Assembly (NCBI GenBank): GCA_043823645.1
Contig: JBDRAO010000024.1
Location: forward strand, 1 to 48,704
Direction of reading: 5' to 3'
Source: a bacterium
GTDB lineage: Bacteria > Patescibacteriota > WWE3 > JBDRAO01
DNA: 48,704 nucleotides
Below the pieces are notes generated by a model that saw nothing but the letters and a program-made list of their open reading frames with translations, was not told where the DNA came from and did no database searches. The position numbers and the translations under genes were made by a program. This document shows, piece after piece, positions 1-38,372 of the stretch. The first letter of the stretch is position 1, and each line of letters opens with the position of its first letter.

Positions 1-78
1 AACAAGTTGCCGGAGACAAATTCCCGTGTGGAAAAGTTTGCCTTAGGCGAGCTATCCGGGTCAACTGACCGTCTCTAA
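1..78 (+). CDS. 3' end of an unidentified CDS entering from the left edge (partial)
   Basis: Frame 1 is open from base 1 to TAA at 76-78 (NKLPETNSRVEKFALGELSGSTDRL*). The stop lies in a hairpin (accgtc/gacggt) followed by a T-run. Too short to identify. Confidence 0.25.
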   Translation, partial: NKLPETNSRVEKFALGELSGSTDRL

Positions 79-8993: not shown

Positions 8994-9287
8994 TTAATCT
9001 TGCTCGACTACGGCGAGCACATCTTCCTCCTTAACAATCAACATCTCTTTGCCATCTAATTTAACATCATTGCCGCCCCACTTTTTGTACAACACTGTGT
9101 CGCCCGCCTTAACTCCCAGGGGGATAGTTTTACCTTCATCGGTTGTTTTGCCGGGGCCGCAAGCCACCACCTTACCCTGCTGGGGCTTTTCTTTGGCTGT
9201 GTCGGGAATTAGAATACCGGAGGCAGTCTTTTGCTCGGCCGCCAATGGTTCTATGAGAATGTTGTCTGTTAAAGGTTTAAGTTTCAT
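8994..9287 (-). CDS. groS: Co-chaperonin GroES
   Basis: 97 aa. MKLKPLTDNILIEP...GKVVACGPG...GDTVLYKKWGG. Confidence 0.95.
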   Translation of the reverse strand: MKLKPLTDNILIEPLAAEQKTASGILIPDTAKEKPQQGKVVACGPGKTTDEGKTIPLGVKAGDTVLYKKWGGNDVKLDGKEMLIVKEEDVLAVVEQD

Positions 9288-10185
9288 ACAGTTTACTGGG
9301 AGTTACCCCTGCCCTTTGGCAGTTCTGTTTATACAACGACAAGATACCACTTGTCAAGTCTTTGGGGTGGAGAAAGAGCTGTTTGGGGTGGCCTCCAGCC
9401 CTTCCGCCCAAAGATGTTTTATTCGCATGTACGGGCTTGCCAGCTAACTTCAATTTAGAAGTTATTCTCTGCAAGCCCTCGACAGCAAAAATGCGAGAAC
9501 CACTAACAGCATTTTTGCTGGCGACATGCTCTAAAACACTTTGGCCCGGATGGGCCGGCGGCTGTGCAGACTCCACAAAATTAGGCAAAAACTCCAAAAT
9601 CCACCGGTTGGCAGACAGAAATTTTTGGTAATACTCCCCCTTGTCAACCAAAGGCTTTACCCGGGCAATTTCTTGGGCCACAAATAAATTCTGGCGCTCC
9701 TTGGGCATTGAAAGGCTCTCTTCCTCAAAAAAGATATTAAAGCAAGCGAAGGTCTTAATAGGTCGTATATGACTTATAAGACCTATTAAAGGGTGGTAGC
9801 GACTTCTACGCTTCAGGGTTAGCGAAAATAGAACAGTGAGCCCAAGCCGAACCAAAAAAAGCCCACCCTGGCGAGTAATTACCATAAAATCGGCATCGGA
9901 AGTTTCCTTGGCGCCTCCGGCCGCCAAATCTCCGGTCAAAAAAACCGCCCTGACACCAGGCATCTTACTCGCCAGTACAGCCAATCGATTTGCTGTACAA
10001 AGTTTTTCTACCAATAAAGCAGAGGGAACTTGTTTTTTAGGACAGTGCCTTACAAAAGGCCTTAAATCGGGTAAGGAGCATTTAGTTCCAATAAGGTACC
10101 GGTAGATTTCTTCCTGCGAGGGGGAATAATTAAAAATCTCAAAGTAACAAAAGGTGCGTTTAACGGCGGACTTAAGGCTTGTCAT
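9277..10185 (-). CDS. Nucleotidyltransferase-fold domain protein (function unknown)
   Basis: 302 aa. VFLTGDLAAGGAKETSDADFMVIT resembles the GS-x-A-x-G...SD-x-D minimal NTase signature. Carries Rep-B in frame. Confidence 0.45.
   Translation of the reverse strand: MTSLKSAVKRTFCYFEIFNYSPSQEEIYRYLIGTKCSLPDLRPFVRHCPKKQVPSALLVEKLCTANRLAVLASKMPGVRAVFLTGDLAAGGAKETSDADFMVITRQGGLFLVRLGLTVLFSLTLKRRSRYHPLIGLISHIRPIKTFACFNIFFEEESLSMPKERQNLFVAQEIARVKPLVDKGEYYQKFLSANRWILEFLPNFVESAQPPAHPGQSVLEHVASKNAVSGSRIFAVEGLQRITSKLKLAGKPVHANKTSLGGRAGGHPKQLFLHPKDLTSGILSLYKQNCQRAGVTPSKLYET
9328..9357 (-). promoter_or_regulatory. Sigma70-like promoter for groES-groEL
   Basis: The minus strand reads TTGACA, 18 nt, TATAAA, about 40 nt upstream of the groES ATG. 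It lies inside the 3' end of the upstream ORF. No CIRCE inverted repeat was seen. Confidence 0.4.
9751..9789. repeat. Rep-B copy 1 (ggtcttaataggtcgtatatgacttataagacctatt), in frame in a CDS
   Basis: Nested inverted arms aataggtc/gacctatt and ggtctta/taagacc. Related copies at 25465-25494 and 37993-38026. Confidence 0.65.
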
Positions 10186-12055
10186 TGGCTGTATCTTTCG
10201 CTATAACCGGGTGAATATCAACCTCCGGCTCGACCTCTTTGTCGGCGCGCGCCGAAGCCGCCATCTCCACCAACTCCTGCGGCTTGGTGGTAATAAGGTT
10301 GTGCTCTTTGGGAGAAGCCACCACCTTTATAGCCACATGGTTAGAGCCGGCAAAAAAGAGGCCCTCGCCCACATCGGCCGAAAGCAGGAACCGCTTTTCC
10401 CCCTCACTCAAATAGAACACCTCGCCCAGCTTGTCAATGGCCGCGGGGTGCTGTTTGAAAAGAATTTGCAAAGAGGCGTTTTTTACAATAGCCCAGCCAT
10501 ACTCATTGTTCAAAAAGTCTTCCACATCTTGGGTAATGGTAGTGAGCCCCAAATAATATTTTCTGGCTCGCTTGGCAATAGAGTACAAAAACATAGCCGA
10601 ATCGGGATACTGCATAAGATACCAGGCCTCATCTACCACCAAAATGCGCTTTTTCAACTGCTTTTTAATGCGAGTCCAAATAAAATCCAACACAATATAC
10701 ATTGCCGTGGGGCGCAACTTATCTTCCAAATTACGAGTGGAGAAAACGGTAAAGGGGTTGGTAATATCCACCGTGGATTGTTCGGAAAAAATGCCGGCCA
10801 AAGAGCCTTTAATATACGGCTCCAACTGCACCGCCATTTCCCGCGCCTCCGGCTCAATTTGCCCCAAAAGCACCTTGTACAAATCTTCCAAAATGGGGGG
10901 CTCCTTGTTTTGGGTGGCCGGCTCGGTGGTGATACCCTTGAGTTTGTAGGTTTGAATGAGAGCCTTATCGAGCACTGCCTCGGCTGAGGGGGTAATTTTC
11001 CCAAAAATTATCTTAAACAAGGTGTGAAGCGATAAAATTTTGGTGCCCAGCTCATTTTCCCCCTCCTCAAAAACTCCCGAGAGATCAAAGGGGTTTATTT
11101 TCTCTTTTGAGTTTTGCGAAAACTCAATATACTCGCCCTGGACCGACTCACATAACCGTTGGTATTCCTGCTCCGGGTCAATGACCAAAACCTCGGCCCC
11201 AAACATTAGCATACGAGCCGCCTCCAACTTTACAAAGTAAGATTTGCCGGCTCCCGATTTGGCAAACACCACCGAGTTGGCATTTTCCAAACCAAACCGG
11301 TCAAAAATTACCAGGGAGTTATTGTGCTCATTAATGCCATATAAAATCCCCTCGTTGGCAGTCAGCTCCGAAGAGGTAAACGGAAAGGTGGTGGCAATTG
11401 AGGTGGTATCCATATTGCGGGTAATCAAAAGCTTATCGGTACAGGTGGGTAAGGTGGTTTTAAAACCTTCTTCCATTTGCAAGGTGGCGTGCTTGGCAAT
11501 GAGCATTAGTGATCCCATGGTGGACTCAATTCTTTTGGAAATATTGTTAAGTTCATCTAAGGTGGGGGCAGAAATGGTGACATAAAAGGAAAATTGGAAA
11601 AAGCGTTCCTCGCCCTTAACCAACTGCTCCTGCAAAGATTTGGCATCCTCCAAGGCAGCCTTAACAGCCGGATCAACCACCCGCCTTCTTTCGATATCGC
11701 TTGATATGGTCACTTCCATCTCGGCAACTTTACGGCGCAGATCATCCAGCACCCCTTTGGCTTTAACTGGGTAGTAAAACATAGAAACATCGATGCTATG
11801 TTCAAAATTGATTATCGGTGAGAGCCAGTTGGCGCTCACAAACCTCGGGTAGCCGGACACAAACAAGGTGCGGTAATACAAATCGCCTATTTTAATATTG
11901 TCAAAGTCAATCTCGATTGAGGGGGGAGCAATAATGTCTTTTAAGTTAAAGCTTCCTTGTTCTAAAACCTCGGCGGCCGAAGGTTCGGACACCGGCTTAA
12001 TATCTTCCAAGGAGGCGACTTCTTTCTTTTTTGCAAAAGGAAGGTTTAGTTTCAT
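10172..12055 (-). CDS. virB4: VirB4/TraE-type T4SS ATPase
   Basis: 627 aa. Walker A is FAKSGAGKSYF and Walker B is RILVVDEAW. The N-terminal APPSIEIDFDNIKIGDLYYRTLFVSGYPRFV is typical of Gram-positive VirB4 homologues. Confidence 0.8.
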   Translation of the reverse strand: MKLNLPFAKKKEVASLEDIKPVSEPSAAEVLEQGSFNLKDIIAPPSIEIDFDNIKIGDLYYRTLFVSGYPRFVSANWLSPIINFEHSIDVSMFYYPVKAKGVLDDLRRKVAEMEVTISSDIERRRVVDPAVKAALEDAKSLQEQLVKGEERFFQFSFYVTISAPTLDELNNISKRIESTMGSLMLIAKHATLQMEEGFKTTLPTCTDKLLITRNMDTTSIATTFPFTSSELTANEGILYGINEHNNSLVIFDRFGLENANSVVFAKSGAGKSYFVKLEAARMLMFGAEVLVIDPEQEYQRLCESVQGEYIEFSQNSKEKINPFDLSGVFEEGENELGTKILSLHTLFKIIFGKITPSAEAVLDKALIQTYKLKGITTEPATQNKEPPILEDLYKVLLGQIEPEAREMAVQLEPYIKGSLAGIFSEQSTVDITNPFTVFSTRNLEDKLRPTAMYIVLDFIWTRIKKQLKKRILVVDEAWYLMQYPDSAMFLYSIAKRARKYYLGLTTITQDVEDFLNNEYGWAIVKNASLQILFKQHPAAIDKLGEVFYLSEGEKRFLLSADVGEGLFFAGSNHVAIKVVASPKEHNLITTKPQELVEMAASARADKEVEPEVDIHPVIAKDTANDKP

Positions 12056-18173: not shown

Positions 18174-21017
18174 CTAAACTTTATAGGCGTGGGGGCAAAG
18201 GTCGCGGAAATCACAGTATTTGCAAAGGAGGGAAGGTTTGGCAGGGAAATCGGAGGTTTTAATGTCGGCAATTGCTTGGGCCACCTTGTCTTTGGCTGTA
18301 TCTAGCTGTTTGGCAGTGCGCGCGGTAGTGGCCTTTTGCCCCGTTTCCAAAAAGTAGAGCGCCAAAGAGTGGGGCATAATACCCAAAACATCGCGAGCCG
18401 CCAGGGCATAAATAGTCAGCTGGTCATCTTTGGCTACAAACTTGGCCTTACTATCGGAGCCGGTTTTATAATCAATAATTTCATACTTTTCTTCCCCAAC
18501 CTTATCTACCCTATCAATTGAGCCTATCAGTTTAGTACCTTCTATATTAAGGGTAAACTTTTTTTCTAAAAAAAGCGGCTCTCCCAGCTTTTGCCCATGC
18601 TCTTTGTAGTAGCGTTCCAAAATAACCCTGCCATCCTCAAAGCGCATTTGTTTGTGTCGGGCATGCTCATAGCCTTCACTATTTTCCTTAAAGTGACCCT
18701 CGTAAAGTTCCAGCAACCTTTTGAGTGAGGTATCTTTGAACAAATCCTCGCGGTGCCAGTCACGCAAAGTGCGGTGCATGGTTTGGCCAAAACTCAAAGA
18801 GTGCGAAGGCAGGGTAGGGATGCCTAAAACATAGCGATACTGGTATTTTTTGGGGCACTGCTTAAAGGTTTCTAGTTGGGAGTAGGAGACATAGGTCATA
18901 TTGGTCGTATAAGACTTATTAACTGTTTCAGCAAACGAAACGGCTTGGGGTACTGTAACGGCAACTTTTTGGGTAAAGGGCTGGGAAGTTTTGAGTTTTG
19001 AACTTTGAGTTTTTTGCAACTCACCCAAAAAACCGGAGGGTTTTCTTTCGCGCGCGCCGCCGTAATCCCTGGCCCAGCTCAAAAACACCCCTTCTTTGGC
19101 CCGAGTAAGACCGACATAAAAAAGTCGGCGCTCCTCTTGAAGATGGTAATTACCGGAAGGCAAAATTTCCTTAATTAAAGCTTCAGGGATTGCAATGGGG
19201 TCAGACCGATTGATAGAGGGAAAGCGACCCGCCACCAAGGAGGGCATAAAGACATATTTGAATTCCAACCCCTTGGCACTGTGAATAGTGAGTAGGTTCA
19301 CAGTATCTACATCTTCAATCTCCGCCTGGGCCGGATTGTCTCCGGCTTCTTTTAAAACTTGGAGCCAATCGGCCAGCTCGTAAATGTTAGGCTCATCGGC
19401 TGATTGCTCGTATTGTTTCACTTTTTCGAAAAACAAATTAATGTTTTTTATTTTGAGGCGATTGGCAATTGATTCTTCTTTGGTAAAACTTTCAAGGTAC
19501 CTAAGTTTAGCCAGTATCTCAAAAAGCAAACGGGTGGGAGACTTTTTTTCCAAATCTTTTCTAAAAGTTTGCAGTAGGACGGCCGCATTGACAACTGTTG
19601 GGTTTTCACTTACCAAAACTGTCTCATAGAGACTTTTTTTCTCTCGGCGGGCCGATTGCACTAGCTCTTGAATAATGGCCGAATCTAATTTCAAAAAAAG
19701 TGGCGCCGTTAAGAGTCTAAAAAGGGCCACGCTGTCTTGCGAATTGGCCAGCCATTGAATAAGCGAGATCAGTACCCTAACTTCCTCCTGATCAAAAAGA
19801 CCCCGATTGCCAATCAGTTGATAGGGGATACCGGCATGGCGCAAGGCTTGAACATACGGCGTCAGTTGAGAGTTGGATCGGGCCAGAATGGCAAAATCTT
19901 TGTAAAATAGCTGTTGGGCGCTGGCTACTGGCTTCTGGCTTTTCTCTATTGTTGTGAGGATTTTACCGACCACCCCCAAAGCCTCTTCCTGCTCGGTAGC
20001 GTACTCTGCAATTTCCACCTGGCACGGCCAATCCACTTGAGACTGCAGTTCCTTGTTTATTTTTTCTTTTACTTCCAAACGGTCGGGGTTGTTGCCTTGA
20101 ATGAGTTTATAGGCGCTGTCTAGTATTTTTTGCCCTGAGCGATAGTTTTTAGAAAGCACCACTGTTTCGGCTTTAGGGTAAGTTTTCCTAAACTCTAAAA
20201 TGTTAGAGAGGGAAGCACCCCGAAAACGGTAAATGGCCTGGTCATCATCCCCCACTACCACTATTCGAATAGTTGGATAATCAGAAGGGCACAGCAGTTT
20301 TACCAGTTCAAACTGCGCCAGGTTTGTGTCTTGGAACTCATCTACCAAAATATACTTAAACTGTTGGCGGTATTTTTCCAAAACGGCCGGCCGTTCCTTA
20401 AAAAGCCTTAAACACCAAAGAATTAGATCACCAAAATCGAGTTTATTCTCTTTTAGTTTAAGGCTTTCATAAAAAGAGTAGGCGTGGGCCAGCTCTTGGT
20501 ACTTTTCTTTTTCCTCGCCTTCATACTTTTTTACCCAGGCTTCAAACTCGGGCGGGGTAATAGCCTCATCTTGCAAACGAGAAAAAAATTTTAAGCTGGC
20601 GCCAATAAATTTGTTAGGGTTTCCCAAGGGTCTAAAATAGGTCAAATTAAAATCGAAAAGGTTTTCTTTAATAAGTAAGTACTGCTGAGGAAAGGAAATA
20701 ATTTTATAGGAAGAGGAAAGGCCCAACTCTAAACCGGACTCCTGTAAAACACGGTCGGCAAAGCGGTGAAAAGTCAAAACCCAAGGCTCAGTGTAACCCA
20801 GGGGCATTGAATCTCCCAAACGGTTAAGCATCTCCTCGGCCGCTTTTTGGGTAAAAGTAAGCGCCAAGATTTCCTCCGGACGGGCCTTGCCTTTTTTCAA
20901 CAAAGATTTAATGCGCTCGGTAATCACCCGCGTTTTCCCGCTCCCCGGCCCGGCCACTACTAGCAAGGCCCCCGCCTCATGTTTTACTACACGGCTTTGC
21001 TCTGGGTTAAGTTTCAT
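18174..21017 (-). CDS. UvrD/PcrA-type helicase fused to a C-terminal RecB/Cas4-type PD-(D/E)XK nuclease
   Basis: Start is MKLNPEQSRVV (ATG 21017). Helicase motifs AGPGSGKT, VDEFQDT and VGDDDQAIYRFRGA. C-terminal nuclease motifs GSIDRVD...IIDYKTG...QLTIYA, plus Cys ligands CPKKY and CKYCDFRDLC. Confidence 0.85.
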   Translation of the reverse strand: MKLNPEQSRVVKHEAGALLVVAGPGSGKTRVITERIKSLLKKGKARPEEILALTFTQKAAEEMLNRLGDSMPLGYTEPWVLTFHRFADRVLQESGLELGLSSSYKIISFPQQYLLIKENLFDFNLTYFRPLGNPNKFIGASLKFFSRLQDEAITPPEFEAWVKKYEGEEKEKYQELAHAYSFYESLKLKENKLDFGDLILWCLRLFKERPAVLEKYRQQFKYILVDEFQDTNLAQFELVKLLCPSDYPTIRIVVVGDDDQAIYRFRGASLSNILEFRKTYPKAETVVLSKNYRSGQKILDSAYKLIQGNNPDRLEVKEKINKELQSQVDWPCQVEIAEYATEQEEALGVVGKILTTIEKSQKPVASAQQLFYKDFAILARSNSQLTPYVQALRHAGIPYQLIGNRGLFDQEEVRVLISLIQWLANSQDSVALFRLLTAPLFLKLDSAIIQELVQSARREKKSLYETVLVSENPTVVNAAVLLQTFRKDLEKKSPTRLLFEILAKLRYLESFTKEESIANRLKIKNINLFFEKVKQYEQSADEPNIYELADWLQVLKEAGDNPAQAEIEDVDTVNLLTIHSAKGLEFKYVFMPSLVAGRFPSINRSDPIAIPEALIKEILPSGNYHLQEERRLFYVGLTRAKEGVFLSWARDYGGARERKPSGFLGELQKTQSSKLKTSQPFTQKVAVTVPQAVSFAETVNKSYTTNMTYVSYSQLETFKQCPKKYQYRYVLGIPTLPSHSLSFGQTMHRTLRDWHREDLFKDTSLKRLLELYEGHFKENSEGYEHARHKQMRFEDGRVILERYYKEHGQKLGEPLFLEKKFTLNIEGTKLIGSIDRVDKVGEEKYEIIDYKTGSDSKAKFVAKDDQLTIYALAARDVLGIMPHSLALYFLETGQKATTARTAKQLDTAKDKVAQAIADIKTSDFPAKPSLLCKYCDFRDLCPHAYKV
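20258..20278. repeat. Rep-E copy 3, in frame inside the helicase (encodes DYPTIRI next to motif VGDDDQ)
   Basis: ccactattcgaatagttggat. The right half is identical to the Rep-E palindrome and the left half has a 1-nt deletion. Confidence 0.65.
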
Positions 21018-21048
21018 AAAACCAGTGTAGCACCAATAAGTAACACAG

Positions 21049-21062
21049 GTTACATATGTAAC
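21049..21062. promoter_or_regulatory. Perfect 14-bp palindrome GTTACATATGTAAC in the helicase/dnaA divergent region
   Basis: Read directly. Flanked by a further gtaaca half-site. Confidence 0.3.
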
Positions 21063-21134
21063 ATACAAAAAAGATAGCTTTGCCCCGAGCCTATCGAGGG
21101 CTACCAGCCCCAAGCCTGTTGAAGTGTTGACACT

Positions 21135-23889: not shown

Positions 23890-24602
23890 CAATGGTGTGG
23901 TTGTACCCCAAACATCTTAATTTGTACGGCGATAGAGGCAATATTGAATGTCTCAAGCGGCGGCTTGAGTGGCGGGGACTCCAATATAAATTGGTAGAGT
24001 TTAATGTGGGAGATTCTCTCAAAAAACTTACAGGGGCAGACCTGTTTTTTGCCGGAGGCGGGCCGGATTCATTGCAAAGGGAGGTTTCAGCCGATGCCTT
24101 TCGCCTCAAACCGGCGCTTATAAAGGCGCAAGAGCAGGGCAGGGCCGGGCTCTTTATTTGCGGCTTTTACCAGCTTTTGGGGCGTTTCTACCGCCCCGCT
24201 GAAGGAGCCGACATCCCTGGTCTTGGTATCTTTGATTGCTACACCGAACACTTCGGGGCGCGGCGAAAGCGTTGTGTGGGAAATATTGTTACCACGCCCC
24301 TTATCCCTCTTAACCCCCTTACCCCCCTTGTTGGATTTGAAAACCACGAGGGCAGAACTTACCTATGTCCCACGGCCAAACCTCTAGCCAAAGTTCAACG
24401 GGGCTTTGGCAACAATGGCCAAGACAAGACCGAGGGGATCATTAAGGGAAATTTTGTGGGGACTTACTTACACGGCCCTCTTTTACCTAAAAACCCCCAC
24501 CTGGCCGATTGGCTATTGGCAAAAGCTTTGGGCGAAAAACTACCATTCCTAGACGACAAATTGGAGTGGCAGACACATACAAATGCTCTCAAACTCAAGT
24601 AA
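23886..24602 (+). CDS. gatD: Glutamine amidotransferase GatD (CobQ-like), partner of MurT
   Basis: LNLYGDRGNIECLKRRLEWRG, catalytic-Cys context ICGFYQLLG, GFENHEGRT and the His context GTYLHGP. Confidence 0.8.
   Translation: MTMVWLYPKHLNLYGDRGNIECLKRRLEWRGLQYKLVEFNVGDSLKKLTGADLFFAGGGPDSLQREVSADAFRLKPALIKAQEQGRAGLFICGFYQLLGRFYRPAEGADIPGLGIFDCYTEHFGARRKRCVGNIVTTPLIPLNPLTPLVGFENHEGRTYLCPTAKPLAKVQRGFGNNGQDKTEGIIKGNFVGTYLHGPLLPKNPHLADWLLAKALGEKLPFLDDKLEWQTHTNALKLK
24296..24330. repeat. Rep-A copy 2 (in frame in gatD; encodes PLIPLNPLTPL)
   Basis: gccccttatccctcttaacccccttacccccctt, immediately before the conserved GFENH motif. Confidence 0.65.
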
Positions 24603-25947
24603 CTTTTTCAAAAAAAACCTCAATGCGCCCAACTTGCTCTGTTTGCTGGTCTTTCTTTTGCCTCTGGGTACCGCCAAGCATTTTGTAGGCAGTTACTCCT
24701 ATATAAACGGCTACCTGGTGGATTATTTGGTGCCGGCTTTTTATGTCAGTGAGTTTCTGGTTTGGGGGGTAATAATTCAATTAGGAATTAAGAATTACGC
24801 CTGCCTGCCGGCAAGGCAGGAATTACGAATTAGAAGACCTCTCTGGCAGAAAAGGTTACTTACAAGCTTCGCAGTTTTGGTTTTTCTGGCAGTTAACTTT
24901 GCTCAGGCCGCAAACCCTATTGCCTGGGTCTATCGTGCCTACCGTTTGCTGGAGGCTTTTTTGCTTTTTAAGGCGGCTTCGGCGCTGTTAAAAGACAGCG
25001 CTGTTTTTAAACGCGTGGCCCTCTTTTTTGCCGGAGGGGTGCTTTGGGCCGGAGTTTTGGGTTTGGCGCAGTTTGTGCTCCAAAGGCCGCTTTTTGGTTA
25101 TTTGCCTTTGGGAGAGAGCCAATTCCAACTCTACAATCCGGCGGTGGCCAAAATTGAGCTTTGGGGCAAGGTACTGGTGCGAGCCTACAGCGGTTTTCCC
25201 CACCCGAATATCCTAGCGGGGTACTTGGTGGTGGGAGTTTTATTAACTCTGGAAACGCTAGTTTCCAGTCGTAAGCTTCCCCCGCCCGCCGCGCCTGAGC
25301 GCAGCGATGGCGGGCGCGGTAGGAGACTTAAGTTACCTAGGTTTCCTAGGTTACTTACGAGCTTCGTAGGGGTTACTTTGGTGGTAGGGGTGGTAGCGCT
25401 TGTGGCAACTTTTTCACGGACAGGGGTGGTGGCTTTGGTAGTGGGAGTTTTGCTGTGGTTGTGTTATAGGTCCTATAAGACCCATAAGACCTATGTCGCA
25501 ATTGCTGGGGTACTTTTGCTACTGTTGGTGGGGCTAGCTCTAACCCCCCGCTTTGCAGAAAGCCTTACGGAGCGGGTGAGCCTAGCCAAAATGGCTTTTG
25601 AAGTTTGGGCCAGGCATCCCATTATTGGCGTCGGGCTTAACAGTTTCTCAAACTTTACAGCTCCTTTTAAGTTCCAACCGGTACACAATATCTTTCTTTT
25701 GATCTTTTCAGAAGCCGGCCTTTTGGGGGGTGTTTTATTTTTGGGTTTTCTTGCAAAAATCTTGCGGCGGGTAGTATTTCCCGCCGGACTAATGCTTATT
25801 CCTTTGCTTTTTTTCGGGCTTTTTGACCACTTTTTACTCACTACTTATCAGGGAATCACTCTTGGTAGTTTGACGCTGGCAATGGTTGTGACATATACTA
25901 AATACAATGGCAGAACAGATACAGGCGGCTCCTCCAAAACCGTTTGA
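24583..25947 (+). CDS. O-antigen ligase/polymerase-like (Wzy_C) membrane protein
   Basis: 454 aa, polytopic. FSRTGVVALVVGVLL and GVGLNSFSNF are typical of the O-antigen-ligase family loop. Carries several repeat insertions. Confidence 0.6.
   Translation: MLSNSSNFFKKNLNAPNLLCLLVFLLPLGTAKHFVGSYSYINGYLVDYLVPAFYVSEFLVWGVIIQLGIKNYACLPARQELRIRRPLWQKRLLTSFAVLVFLAVNFAQAANPIAWVYRAYRLLEAFLLFKAASALLKDSAVFKRVALFFAGGVLWAGVLGLAQFVLQRPLFGYLPLGESQFQLYNPAVAKIELWGKVLVRAYSGFPHPNILAGYLVVGVLLTLETLVSSRKLPPPAAPERSDGGRGRRLKLPRFPRLLTSFVGVTLVVGVVALVATFSRTGVVALVVGVLLWLCYRSYKTHKTYVAIAGVLLLLLVGLALTPRFAESLTERVSLAKMAFEVWARHPIIGVGLNSFSNFTAPFKFQPVHNIFLLIFSEAGLLGGVLFLGFLAKILRRVVFPAGLMLIPLLFFGLFDHFLLTTYQGITLGSLTLAMVVTYTKYNGRTDTGGSSKTV
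24786..24833. repeat. Composite Rep-D arm + Rep-C GC palindrome + Rep-D arm, in frame in the O-antigen ligase
   Basis: aattaagaattacg-cctgcctgccggcaaggcagg-aattacgaattag encodes IKNYACLPARQELRIR. Confidence 0.7.
25465..25494. repeat. Rep-B copy 2 (ataggtcctataagacccataagacctat), in frame (YRSYKTHKTY)
   Basis: Terminal inverted arms ataggtc/gacctat. Same family as 9751-9789 and 37993-38026. Confidence 0.65.
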
Positions 25948-36725: not shown

Positions 36726-37753
36726 AAATCTTTAATAAATTCCTGCACCGCGGAAAAATCGCCCGCCTTTGGTATTAACACCCAGGCGCCGTTGTAAGGC
36801 TCCGTCTCTTTGGGGTTGTAGAACAAGTTACCATCTAGCACCTGTTTACTAATTTGGGCATTGTCTGAGCTTTGGGCTAAATCATAAAAAGCCAAAGCCT
36901 CTTCCAGGCTAACATTAGTCTCAACATATTCTTTGAAAATATCGTAGAGCAGTTTAATTTTAGCCGGATTAAAAAGTGTTTTGTGAGAAAGAAGGCGGTC
37001 TTTAAAAGCCAAAATTACCTTTTGCTGGCGGGCGCTTCTGGCAAAATCGGTGCCCTCATCGCCCAGGGCGTGGCGACTGCGAACGAATTGCAGGGCTTTT
37101 TCTCCGCTTAAAGTTTGCTCTCCGGCAGAAAAGTAAACATGAGTGTAACGGTCTTCCTCGGGGTAAACATTTTCGCGACCCTCAACAGGGTATTTATAAT
37201 CGTCAAATTCGTGAGCTATATCTACTGTTAAACCGCCCACCGTGTCAACCGCTTTTACAAAGCCTTCAAAACCCACCACGGCGTAGTAGTGAATGGGTAA
37301 GTCTAAGATATTTTCGATCGTTTTTTCCAAAGCCTCAACCCCGCCCCACTGGTAAACAGCGTTAATTTTGCCGCTGTAGGGTGAGTCGGCGTAGGGTACC
37401 CAAAGATCGCGGGGAAGGGAAATTATAAACGCTTTGGTACCGGTTTCGTTAATGGAGCCTACCATTATAGTGTCGGTGAGCCAGCCGCTTTCCGTACTTT
37501 GTTTACCGCGGCGATCTAAGCCTAAAATGAGAATATTGGTTTGTCCGTTGGCGGCGGCTAGAGAGGGCGCGCCGGTAATTTTTGAAATCACGCCGGTGGC
37601 CGATTGGCGGCCGATATTTTTAACCGCCATTACGGAAATTGTAAAGAGTACCACTATTCCCAAGCCTAGTAGCGCAAGCTTTACCGTTTTTTTCTTGGGG
37701 GCGGTAGTGGTATCTTTTAGATACTTTTTGCGTCTTACAGTTTTAAATGGCAT
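36722..37753 (-). CDS. LytR-CpsA-Psr (LCP) family protein
   Basis: 343 aa with an N-terminal TM helix. TNILILGLDRRG...DTIMVGSINETGTKAFIISLPRDLWV...RSRH. Confidence 0.85.
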   Translation of the reverse strand: MPFKTVRRKKYLKDTTTAPKKKTVKLALLGLGIVVLFTISVMAVKNIGRQSATGVISKITGAPSLAAANGQTNILILGLDRRGKQSTESGWLTDTIMVGSINETGTKAFIISLPRDLWVPYADSPYSGKINAVYQWGGVEALEKTIENILDLPIHYYAVVGFEGFVKAVDTVGGLTVDIAHEFDDYKYPVEGRENVYPEEDRYTHVYFSAGEQTLSGEKALQFVRSRHALGDEGTDFARSARQQKVILAFKDRLLSHKTLFNPAKIKLLYDIFKEYVETNVSLEEALAFYDLAQSSDNAQISKQVLDGNLFYNPKETEPYNGAWVLIPKAGDFSAVQEFIKDL

Positions 37754-38372
37754 TGATTAAATTTATAAAATCTTGGTAATTAAGGCTGGCCTGGCCCACC
37801 AGAAAGCCGGAAAGCCGGGGGATTTTAGCCAGAGGTTTAATATTTTGCGCATTGACACTGCCGCCGTAGAGCAGGGTGGCTTCTGGTTCCAAATCTTTTT
37901 TGTATTGAGTTAGCTCTTTTTTGACCTTTTCTAGGTCGACAGCCTTAAACTGCCCCCCTTGGCTGATATTCTCCGGTGGCTCGTAGCAGAAGATATAGGT
38001 CTTATAAGTCGTATAGGATCTATATTCTTTAATTTGGGAGAGTTTACTAAAGCAGAGTAGGGGAGTGATGTTTTTTGCCAAGAGCGCTGCTATTTTTTGG
38101 GCAATGATATCTTCTCCCTCGCCCAATTTCCGGCGGTCGCTGTGGCCCACCAGGCAGTATTTTACCTTAGGGTTTGCAAGGGTCTTTTCGGTAGCATCTT
38201 GGGCTCCTAAAGTTACCGGTAACATGTCCCACTCAGGCCAGTTTAGAAAAGCCTCCGGCGGGCAAACTATAACTTCGGCTCCCTTTGGCAGGTCAGCTCC
38301 AGCCATCTTTTCAATAAATTCTCTGGCTCCGGCTAAGTTTTGTTTATTTTTCCAATTAGCTACAAAATACAA
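37743..38372 (-). CDS. tpiA: Triose-phosphate isomerase (compact, about 209 aa)
   Basis: TTG start. ANWKN (catalytic Lys), LVGHSDRR (His) and CYEPPENI (Glu). Carries Rep-B in frame just before the YEP strand. Confidence 0.7.
   Translation of the reverse strand: MYFVANWKNKQNLAGAREFIEKMAGADLPKGAEVIVCPPEAFLNWPEWDMLPVTLGAQDATEKTLANPKVKYCLVGHSDRRKLGEGEDIIAQKIAALLAKNITPLLCFSKLSQIKEYRSYTTYKTYIFCYEPPENISQGGQFKAVDLEKVKKELTQYKKDLEPEATLLYGGSVNAQNIKPLAKIPRLSGFLVGQASLNYQDFINLINAI
37993..38026. repeat. Rep-B copy 3 (ataggtcttataagtcgtataggatctat), in frame in tpiA (YRSYTTYKTY)
   Basis: Same ataggtcYtataag core as the other copies. Confidence 0.6.

Follow-up and report, generated by a model that had tools for sequence, protein, structure and literature searches.

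How does one short palindromic DNA sequence come to be translated, in frame, within several unrelated proteins? The question is raised by a stretch of 48,704 nucleotides (here 'the window': contig JBDRAO010000024.1, C24 in our numbering, of GenBank assembly GCA_043823645.1) from a WWE3 bacterium of the Patescibacteriota. An earlier, sequence-only reading of the window had pointed out three copies of a palindromic element, Rep-B, in genes for a nucleotidyltransferase (NTase)-like protein, an O-antigen ligase and the triosephosphate isomerase TpiA. The whole draft genome (680 kb, 88 contigs, 45% GC) was scanned for the element, gene calls being based on open reading frames (ORFs) throughout. The answer that we favour, with about even confidence, is that the Rep-B copies are solo members of a cross-phylum family of arrays of 9-nt units, partnered with 'suffix-type' four-helix-bundle genes, and that they have been copied into or over other DNA.

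Rep-B is a quasi-palindrome with a fixed length of 31 nt, made of 3.5 units of 9 nt: TATAGGTCN TATANGWCN TATANGACC TATW. With GTC in its first unit and GAC in its last, the whole is quasi-palindromic, and the polarity can be read from the middle unit alone. Predicted pairing was found in 88% of stem cells, compared to 22 to 54% when the partner column was slid. In the window, a 13-nt core pattern matched 18 times (3.5 expected), a number that none of 100 shuffles reached. A position-weight scan of the genome then returned 19 full-length matches of 27 to 46 bits, which correspond to 18 loci because the ends of contigs C36 and C56 overlap; the loci are found in both orientations, and four of them are in the window. 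Apart from these, the scan gave one partial match at 16 bits and otherwise only shifted overlaps of the same copies, with no site scoring between 16 and 27 bits. The best match in each of five simulated genomes reached 3.8 to 14 bits, and a single copy was found by the model in 960 kb of unrelated loci from the candidate phyla radiation (CPR). Chance and codon bias as sources of Rep-B are ruled out by the null scans and by these unrelated loci. The three segments singled out at the start are thus copies of one DNA-level repeat, present in different frames and orientations in unrelated proteins.

Insertion and overwriting in the host genes

All three copies lie within a few bases of where they had been placed, and in the frames claimed for them; a fourth copy in the window had been missed. 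Copy 1 (core at 9757-9787, with a further half unit at 9751-9756; 42.6 bits) is read as LIGLISHIRPI in the NTase-like ORF (9277-10185, minus strand), whose product had no match in Pfam or NCBIfam and owes its 'NTase-fold' label to a motif only. Copy 2, the overlooked one (18890-18920, 39.2 bits), is read as NKSYTTNMTY in an ORF for a UvrD-type helicase/PD-(D/E)xK nuclease (18174-21113, minus strand); it sits in the linker that follows UvrD_C, and the nuclease domain begins directly after it. Copy 3 (25465-25495, 43.0 bits) supplies the peptide YRSYKTHKTY to a Wzy_C O-antigen ligase ORF (24583-25947, plus strand), in a loop between transmembrane helices. Copy 4 (37994-38024, 42.3 bits) is in the tpiA ORF (37743-38372, minus strand), where YRSYTTYKTY directly precedes the catalytic-Glu strand IFCYEP.

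The copies had been taken for in-frame insertions, a view that held for one host, failed for another and was borne out in part for a third. In the NTase-like protein, 13 of 13 aligned class-level orthologues are gapped by 9 residues exactly at the copy (RRSR[YHPLIGLIS]HIRPIKTFAC here, compared to RRRR-EQKVAPDRVC), and these alignments support a true lineage-specific insertion of 9 residues. In TpiA, the length change is zero: the segment does not exceed in length that of orthologues at 33 to 71% identity, including those free of the repeat. The relative at 71% identity (L021) has Rep-B at the same tpiA site, identical at 25 of 31 nt and at 8 of 10 third codon positions, which are more conserved within the element than in its flanks; a difference of 3 residues (9 nt) adjoins the copy. 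Relatives at 54% and 49% identity have decayed look-alikes at the site. The ligase shows an intermediate situation, with a gain of about 4 residues, YRSYKTHKTY replacing a KFRKK-type loop (IKFRKK in the nearest relative, P0141/L055, where the DNA is unrelated). For the helicase linker, the gain is 2 to 7 residues depending on the alignment, and the syntenic, 75% identical helicase of L055 has KKPYHPPY at this place, without Rep-B DNA.

The isomerase has other peculiarities. TpiA (37743-38372) is devoid of an 11-residue GxHTGE segment that was found in 15 of 15 aligned class-level orthologues, and it has GHSDRR in place of GHSERR. The deletion of the GxHTGE segment is common, wholly or mostly, to the relatives at 71% and 54% identity. 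Judging from these residues, TpiA of this lineage may be an unusual or impaired triosephosphate isomerase.

Two hosts outside the window are also unchanged in length. The tyrosyl-tRNA synthetase (TyrRS, on C56/C36) has 357 residues, the length also of almost all of the 120 best homologues listed, among them archaeal ones; its repeat-encoded peptide KYGSNRTYKTYKNL aligns without a gap on DNGGNKTFKSYEEL of PDB entry 8zmi, and is ungapped against 3vgj too. Similarly, in a GT4 glycosyltransferase (C12:15714), ELYDLYDLCDLY falls ungapped on ELIDLYSRCKGL of 2f9f, and on 3c4q. Both the Wzy_C and the GT4 domain are shorter, in residues, than their Pfam profiles. As far as alignments can tell, Rep-B both inserts and overwrites, because the NTase-like protein gained 9 residues, TyrRS, GT4 and TpiA gained none, and the ligase and helicase stand between. 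An insertion-only model is ruled out by TyrRS, GT4 and TpiA, and an in-place-only model by the NTase-like protein.

The TyrRS site could be followed in close relatives, where ordinary, non-repeat DNA encodes HGSNKTYKNY (L051, 78%), YGGDKTYKNY (L052, 77%) and HGGDKAYKSY (L053, 75%). With a weight matrix built without the TyrRS copy, the site scores 37.6 bits here, compared to 4.3, -17.6 and -15.3 bits, respectively, in these three. Within the relatives, the orthologous DNA belongs to the top 0.005 to 0.5% of repeat scores, the L051 site being the best among 21,044 positions; the target therefore already resembled Rep-B. In an alignment made by eye, about 11 of the 31 positions differ from L051, and 8 of them bring this genome to the consensus, including the synonymous changes GGC to GGG, TAC to TAT and AAA to AAG. 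A more distant relative (L054, 73%) has its own 9-nt periodicity at the TyrRS site, and Rep-B-like arrays upstream of rpsP and tyrS.

In 53 kb of syntenic DNA from three relatives (L051, L052 and L055, the last being syntenic gene for gene with window positions 14.9-27 kb), no Rep-B was found at the four sites that carry a copy here, namely tyrS, the rpsP leader, the helicase and the ligase. From this comparison, Rep-B at these sites would be a recent gain. The rpsP leader is a recurrent site: it has Rep-B here, a 4.5-unit array in the 73% relative (L054 6078-6125), and the outer arms only (ATAGGT ATTA ACCTAT) in the 78% relative (L051 15700-15730). When metagenomes were scanned with the PMT-like host protein, no relative came up, and with PilB the only relatives were at no more than 50% identity, of no use for the C40 sites. 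Copies interior to long ORFs of other phyla lie mostly in spurious high-GC ORFs or in variable loops of non-ribosomal peptide synthetases (NRPS), and are uninformative for insertion or replacement. In two NRPS adenylation domains from metagenome-assembled genomes (MAGs) of Aminicenantes and Acidobacteriota (L211 7674 and L212 525), Rep-B is in frame between ...LTAEKF and YKTGDLARW, as YRSYRSYRTY and NRSYKSYKTY.

Placement within the genome was then considered as a whole. Under a crude gene model, with a coding fraction of 0.91 of the genome, 14 to 15 of the 18 copies are coding (P = 0.23), so that genes are neither avoided nor preferred by Rep-B. Coding copies are read in the frames Y-K/R-S/T (eight copies), I-G-L/P (five copies) and L-Y-D (one copy). 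Most are translatable because the unit is 9 nt long and two of three frames per strand, Y-K/R-S/T and I-G-L/P, are open; with such open frames and a 9-nt unit, many copies can therefore survive within the genes of a genome with little non-coding DNA. In the L-Y-D frame the consensus holds TAA/TAG, and its sole occupant, which is also the lowest-scoring copy, stays open because TAC has taken their place. The I-G-L copies form membrane helices, for instance the first helix of a prepilin peptidase, and the Y-K-T copies are placed in linkers and in loops between membrane helices. Four copies are associated with 5' leaders, being located inside or beside them: one directly precedes rpsP, and the others are upstream of gyrB, upstream of pcrA and between pilin genes.

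The palindrome suggests a structure, for which the evidence is uneven. Copy 1 (9751-9787) forms a strong DNA hairpin (-7 kcal/mol, z = -6.6), and copy 2 (18890-18920) folds no better than its shuffles; overall, hairpin energies run from -7 kcal/mol down to the shuffled level, at which two of six copies were found. No covariation above shuffles was detected in the Rep-B hairpin (57 of 500 shuffles reached the score). A hairpin under selection is ruled out as a claim by the absent covariation and by the two of six copies that fold like shuffles. Rfam gave no match at any Rep-B copy. Elsewhere, window positions 1-70 match the Rfam family DUF3800-II RNA at 61 bits (gathering score 43), the match being cut by the start of the window.

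A four-helix-bundle gene that carries the repeat

The Rep-B model built from the 18 copies was compared with 134 representative genomes of the class. Few were matched, and the clearest matches were in or beside one small kind of gene. The genome studied here holds five PF05635 genes, of which two, on C23 and C79, are of this suffix type: the C79 gene is complete and combines TIGR02436 with the TIGR04258 suffix domain, which full-length relatives also have; in the C23 gene, truncated at a contig end, only TIGR02436 was found. In the C23 gene, Rep-B (LAYKSNRSYKTYS, 39 bits) codes for the inter-helix loop before the last helix, LAY-KSNRSYKTY-S, and the 31 nt of Rep-B correspond to the size of the partner gene's loop sequence. 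The loop of the suffix-type gene is also encoded by Rep-B in the class relatives G029, G025, G005 and G015, and in ten loci from Nitrospirota, Desulfobacterota, Phycisphaerae, Verrucomicrobiota, Doudnabacteria and Saccharibacteria. Altogether, suffix-type genes with a Rep-B-encoded loop were found here and across more than ten phyla.

In one of these relatives, six Rep-B copies are gathered within 2.6 kb (L048, on G029:C21, 3361-5959). Two are in the four-helix-bundle gene and one is at the stop codon of the next gene. The other three are read in one frame in an adjacent 585-residue membrane/TPR protein, as IGRIGLIGPIR, IGRIGPIRPM and IGQIGPIGPIR.

The repeat itself is spread more widely. An exact 27-nt pattern, TAGGTCNTATANGWCNTATANGACCTA, which specifies about 22 bases and should match by chance well under once, was found at no fewer than 119 loci in many phyla (one genome per species was scanned). 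Rep-B is common to Patescibacteria, Acidobacteriota, Chlorobi, Bacteroidota, Cloacimonadota, Planctomycetota, Verrucomicrobiota, Nitrospirota and Desulfobacterota. Copy numbers vary considerably: at least 141 matches in a Pyrinomonadaceae MAG, at least 83 in a Cloacimonadota MAG, at least 69 in Marinifilum and at least 61 in a Chlorobium MAG, compared to a single locus each in Saccharibacteria, Doudnabacteria, Desulfobacterales and Verrucomicrobium. Matches in other genomes are strand-matches, a palindromic copy being able to match on both strands, and are given as lower bounds, since scoring covered 150 candidates per genome. For the single-locus genomes, the locus was inside the suffix-type gene in the three cases looked at (Saccharibacteria, Doudnabacteria and Desulfobacterales), and among the four copy-rich genomes, three possess a close homologue of this gene.

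If gene and repeat belong together, a different loop could be expected to go with a different dispersed unit. The loop of the C79 gene (about 1130-1158) carries a different 9-mer, TATGTGACA TATGTAACA TATGTAACA, of unit TATGTWACN ('Rep-B2'), and two more copies of this unit were found beyond the gene. One is at C58:5482; the other, GTAACACAG GTTACATAT GTAACATA, is in the window at 21040-21065, in the 72-nt spacer from the helicase gene to dnaA, and so probably near the replication origin. More distant subfamilies of the gene have other loop units. In the relative G001, the loop unit AATTTGWCN had 56 matches, spread over some ten separate sites, where the reversed control had 5, and in three other genomes it was present in background numbers only. 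In all three cases of this small sample, the loop unit of the gene predicted the dispersed arrays of its own genome.

Both repeats also leave a trace in the assembly itself. Contigs C23, C36/C56 and C58 end no more than about 100 nt from a Rep-B or Rep-B2 copy, and the break between C56 and C36 cuts tyrS at its Rep-B copy; the repeats break the assembly.

Searches of the literature in full text, by sequence, peptides and concept, found no description of Rep-B, which is in line with the initial impression that it is not a described trait. On our best reading of the literature searched, no publication deals with a repeat family partnered with a suffix-type gene.

Copying, mutation or insertion

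Under the reading favoured here, in which the copies come from the partner gene's array, the fixed 31-nt template of 3.5 units in the inter-helix loop of the C23 gene would be copied into other DNA. With variable junctions, the outcome would be either a gain of at most three units (27 nt, the case of the NTase-like gene) or the replacement of a stretch of similar length (the case of TyrRS, GT4 and TpiA), replacement being preferred where the target already resembles the repeat. Selection would keep copies in loops, linkers, membrane helices and 5' leaders, and would remove or edit those in the stop-containing frame. A constant 31-nt size equal to that of the loop, the lack of intermediate scores and the differing copy numbers argue for a discrete copying event. 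The 27-nt gain, the small gains, the exact replacements and the repeat-like targets in turn argue for templated, conversion-like copying with variable junctions, not cut-and-paste. The four-helix-bundle protein may take part in it.

Several observations weigh against this reading. No copying enzyme or intermediate was seen. The gene is within 8 kb at only 10 of the 119 cross-phylum loci listed, most being solo copies, and the link between gene and repeat is therefore genome-wide, not physical; moreover, the Chlorobium MAG, with its many matches, showed no close homologue of the gene, although this MAG may be incomplete. The 18 copies occupy only 9 contigs, compared to 15.4 expected (P < 1e-4); a glycosylation cluster accounts for four of them and the pilus contig for three. 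Such clustering may come from local spread, or may simply mean that envelope and pilus genes tolerate the repeat. The gains of about 4 residues in the ligase and of 2 to 7 in the helicase are in loops that align poorly. The nearest outgroups are only 71 to 78% identical, a distance at which a single-step event is indistinguishable from gradual change. Lastly, the TyrRS copy departs from the consensus exactly where the protein needs Gly and Asn, a pattern that stepwise selection would predict as well. For the in-place copies, such selection, acting on a binding or uptake motif, is an equally good explanation, but it accounts for neither the insertion nor the fixed size.

In the strongest rival explanation, point mutations would build Rep-B in place wherever the host protein tolerates it, with selection or molecular drive favouring a motif in DNA or RNA, either a binding site for the four-helix-bundle protein or a signal of the uptake-sequence type. 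We regard it as possible but doubtful. It accounts for the in-place copies in TyrRS, GT4 and TpiA, for relatives' orthologous sites that already rank so high in repeat score, and for deviations from the consensus that coincide with conserved residues. It also agrees with the repeated use of certain sites among related lineages (tpiA for L021, the rpsP leader for L054) and with an element that surpasses its flanks in third-codon-position conservation. However, it cannot alone yield the 27-nt insertion in the NTase-like gene, and the constant 3.5 units without any site of 16 to 27 bits indicate a discrete unit of transfer. In addition, the hairpin shows no covariation and is of very uneven stability, and the density, 1 per 38 kb (18 copies in 680 kb), is far under that of known uptake signals.

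A miniature insertion element is another candidate, though an unlikely one. Here, Rep-B would be a discrete 27- to 31-nt unit resembling a Rickettsia palindromic element (RPE), a miniature inverted-repeat transposable element or a repetitive extragenic palindrome (REP), perhaps mobilised by a Y1 transposase, and the cases of zero length change would result from compensating deletions. The clean gain of 9 residues in the NTase-like protein, the uniform copy length and the two PF01797 (Y1) genes of the genome, on C26 and C40, fit this idea, and the differences in copy number between genomes resemble those of mobile elements. In TyrRS and GT4, however, the copies match residue for residue on conserved positions, and it is implausible that an equally long deletion would bring homologous residues back. 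Target-site duplications were not observed, a different palindrome flanks the RAYT-like gene on C26 (a REP-associated tyrosine transposase), and L051 has a Y1_Tnp-like gene with no Rep-B in its 21 kb.

The C26 gene (8398-9183) is a RAYT-like Y1 transposase gene of 240 aa (HFHFL...YIHLNP) that has its own palindrome on both sides (TTCCACCCGNCGGGTGGAA, also written CATTCCACCCGNCGGGTGGAATG), and not Rep-B; the genome has 11 copies of this palindrome. From layout and copy number, gene and palindrome resemble a REP/RAYT system, here in a CPR bacterium. At the C40 Y1_Tnp gene there is no adjoining Rep-B, the nearest copy, upstream of gyrB, being about 2 kb off. RAYT/IS200 mobilisation of Rep-B was rejected, the C26 Y1 gene having a different REP. 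A complete-looking diversity-generating retroelement (DGR) is found at C16:9330-12104, with a reverse transcriptase at 9835-11073, upstream of which is a small Avd-like ORF, and with two inverted repeats of 161 nt that are 88% identical (9330-9490 and 11049-11209); the second repeat is the 3' end of a gene ending ...YSYRCVR. Rep-B as a DGR variable region is ruled out, since this sole DGR has its own repeat pair and no Rep-B.

A bolder form of templated copying is conceivable, in which suffix-type proteins, together with a polymerase such as the reverse transcriptase of the resident DGR, would write their own loop sequence over partly similar sites. We consider it a long shot; if true, it would amount to a natural short-patch 'copy-over' system across bacterial phyla, and would explain how essential genes such as tyrS come to carry the repeat without a change in length. 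Finally, local growth of each copy as a coding tandem repeat by slippage is hardly credible and, as a sole explanation, effectively refuted: it agrees with the 9-nt periodicity, with extra degenerate units in some flanks and with the 9-nt difference next to the tpiA copy in L021, but not with one unit and one GTC...GAC arrangement at 18 unrelated loci, in three frames, both orientations and 5' leaders, nor with the same unit in more than ten phyla at a constant number of 3.5.

Relation to known repeat systems

Small dispersed repeats are usually seen as intergenic junk or as clean insertions, and Rep-B differs from both. It is shared across phyla, it is translated in essential enzymes, and at least three of its copies replace conserved codons with the protein length unchanged. 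If the partnership with the suffix-type gene is functional, the PF05635 family, known as '23S rRNA intervening sequence protein', would gain a testable role in the sequence-specific handling of 9-nt arrays, and DNA would appear to spread here by a route other than transposition or ordinary slippage. On the practical side, besides breaking assemblies, Rep-B gives rise to odd Tyr/Lys/Thr or Ile/Gly/Pro peptides that annotators ought to recognise.

The RPEs had been proposed as the precedent. They are reportedly about 100 to 150 bp long, insert cleanly with a contribution of 30 to 50 residues, and are restricted to Rickettsia. The likeness is real in that both are dispersed palindromic repeats, translated in frame and tolerated at permissive positions of essential proteins. 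The analogy is nevertheless loose: all 18 Rep-B copies are 31 nt long and built of 9-nt units, they often leave the protein length unchanged, they occur in many phyla, and across these phyla they are tied to a four-helix-bundle gene.

With REPs, their hairpin-forming combinations (REPINs) and RAYTs, Rep-B shares a short (20- to 40-nt) imperfect palindrome able to form a hairpin, by the predicted pairing given above, as well as a variable copy number and a single-copy partner gene. REPs are extragenic, and the RAYT gene is flanked by them. In contrast, the great majority of Rep-B copies (14 to 15 of 18) are inside genes; its partner is a PF05635/TIGR02436 gene and not a transposase, and the repeat is within the coding sequence of that partner. 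The uptake sequences of Haemophilus (uptake signal sequence) and Neisseria (DNA uptake sequence) have cores of 9 to 12 nt and a density of about 1 per kb. Like Rep-B, they accumulate in coding DNA without indels, in tolerated frames and often as inverted pairs; Rep-B differs by its 31-nt size, its much lower density, one real 27-nt insertion and its partner gene.

The partner gene belongs to the same four-helix-bundle superfamily as the 23S rRNA intervening-sequence protein (S23p/PF05635) and the Avd protein of DGRs. Avd-dependent DGR homing overwrites its target and leaves the length unchanged. Rep-B, on the other hand, has no rRNA context and no adenine-specific mutagenesis, and consists of 31-nt patches in many genes; a role for a reverse transcriptase in its copying would be pure conjecture, drawn from this analogy.

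A further comparison is with the small dispersed repeats (SDRs) of cyanobacteria, which are said to be 21 to 27 nt long, to have no recognised transposase and to be restricted to lineages. SDRs and Rep-B are alike in being very small dispersed repeats without a recognised transposase. We know of no partner gene, 9-nt units or in-frame overwriting for SDRs; these three features, together with a distribution that is not restricted to one lineage, are what set Rep-B apart.

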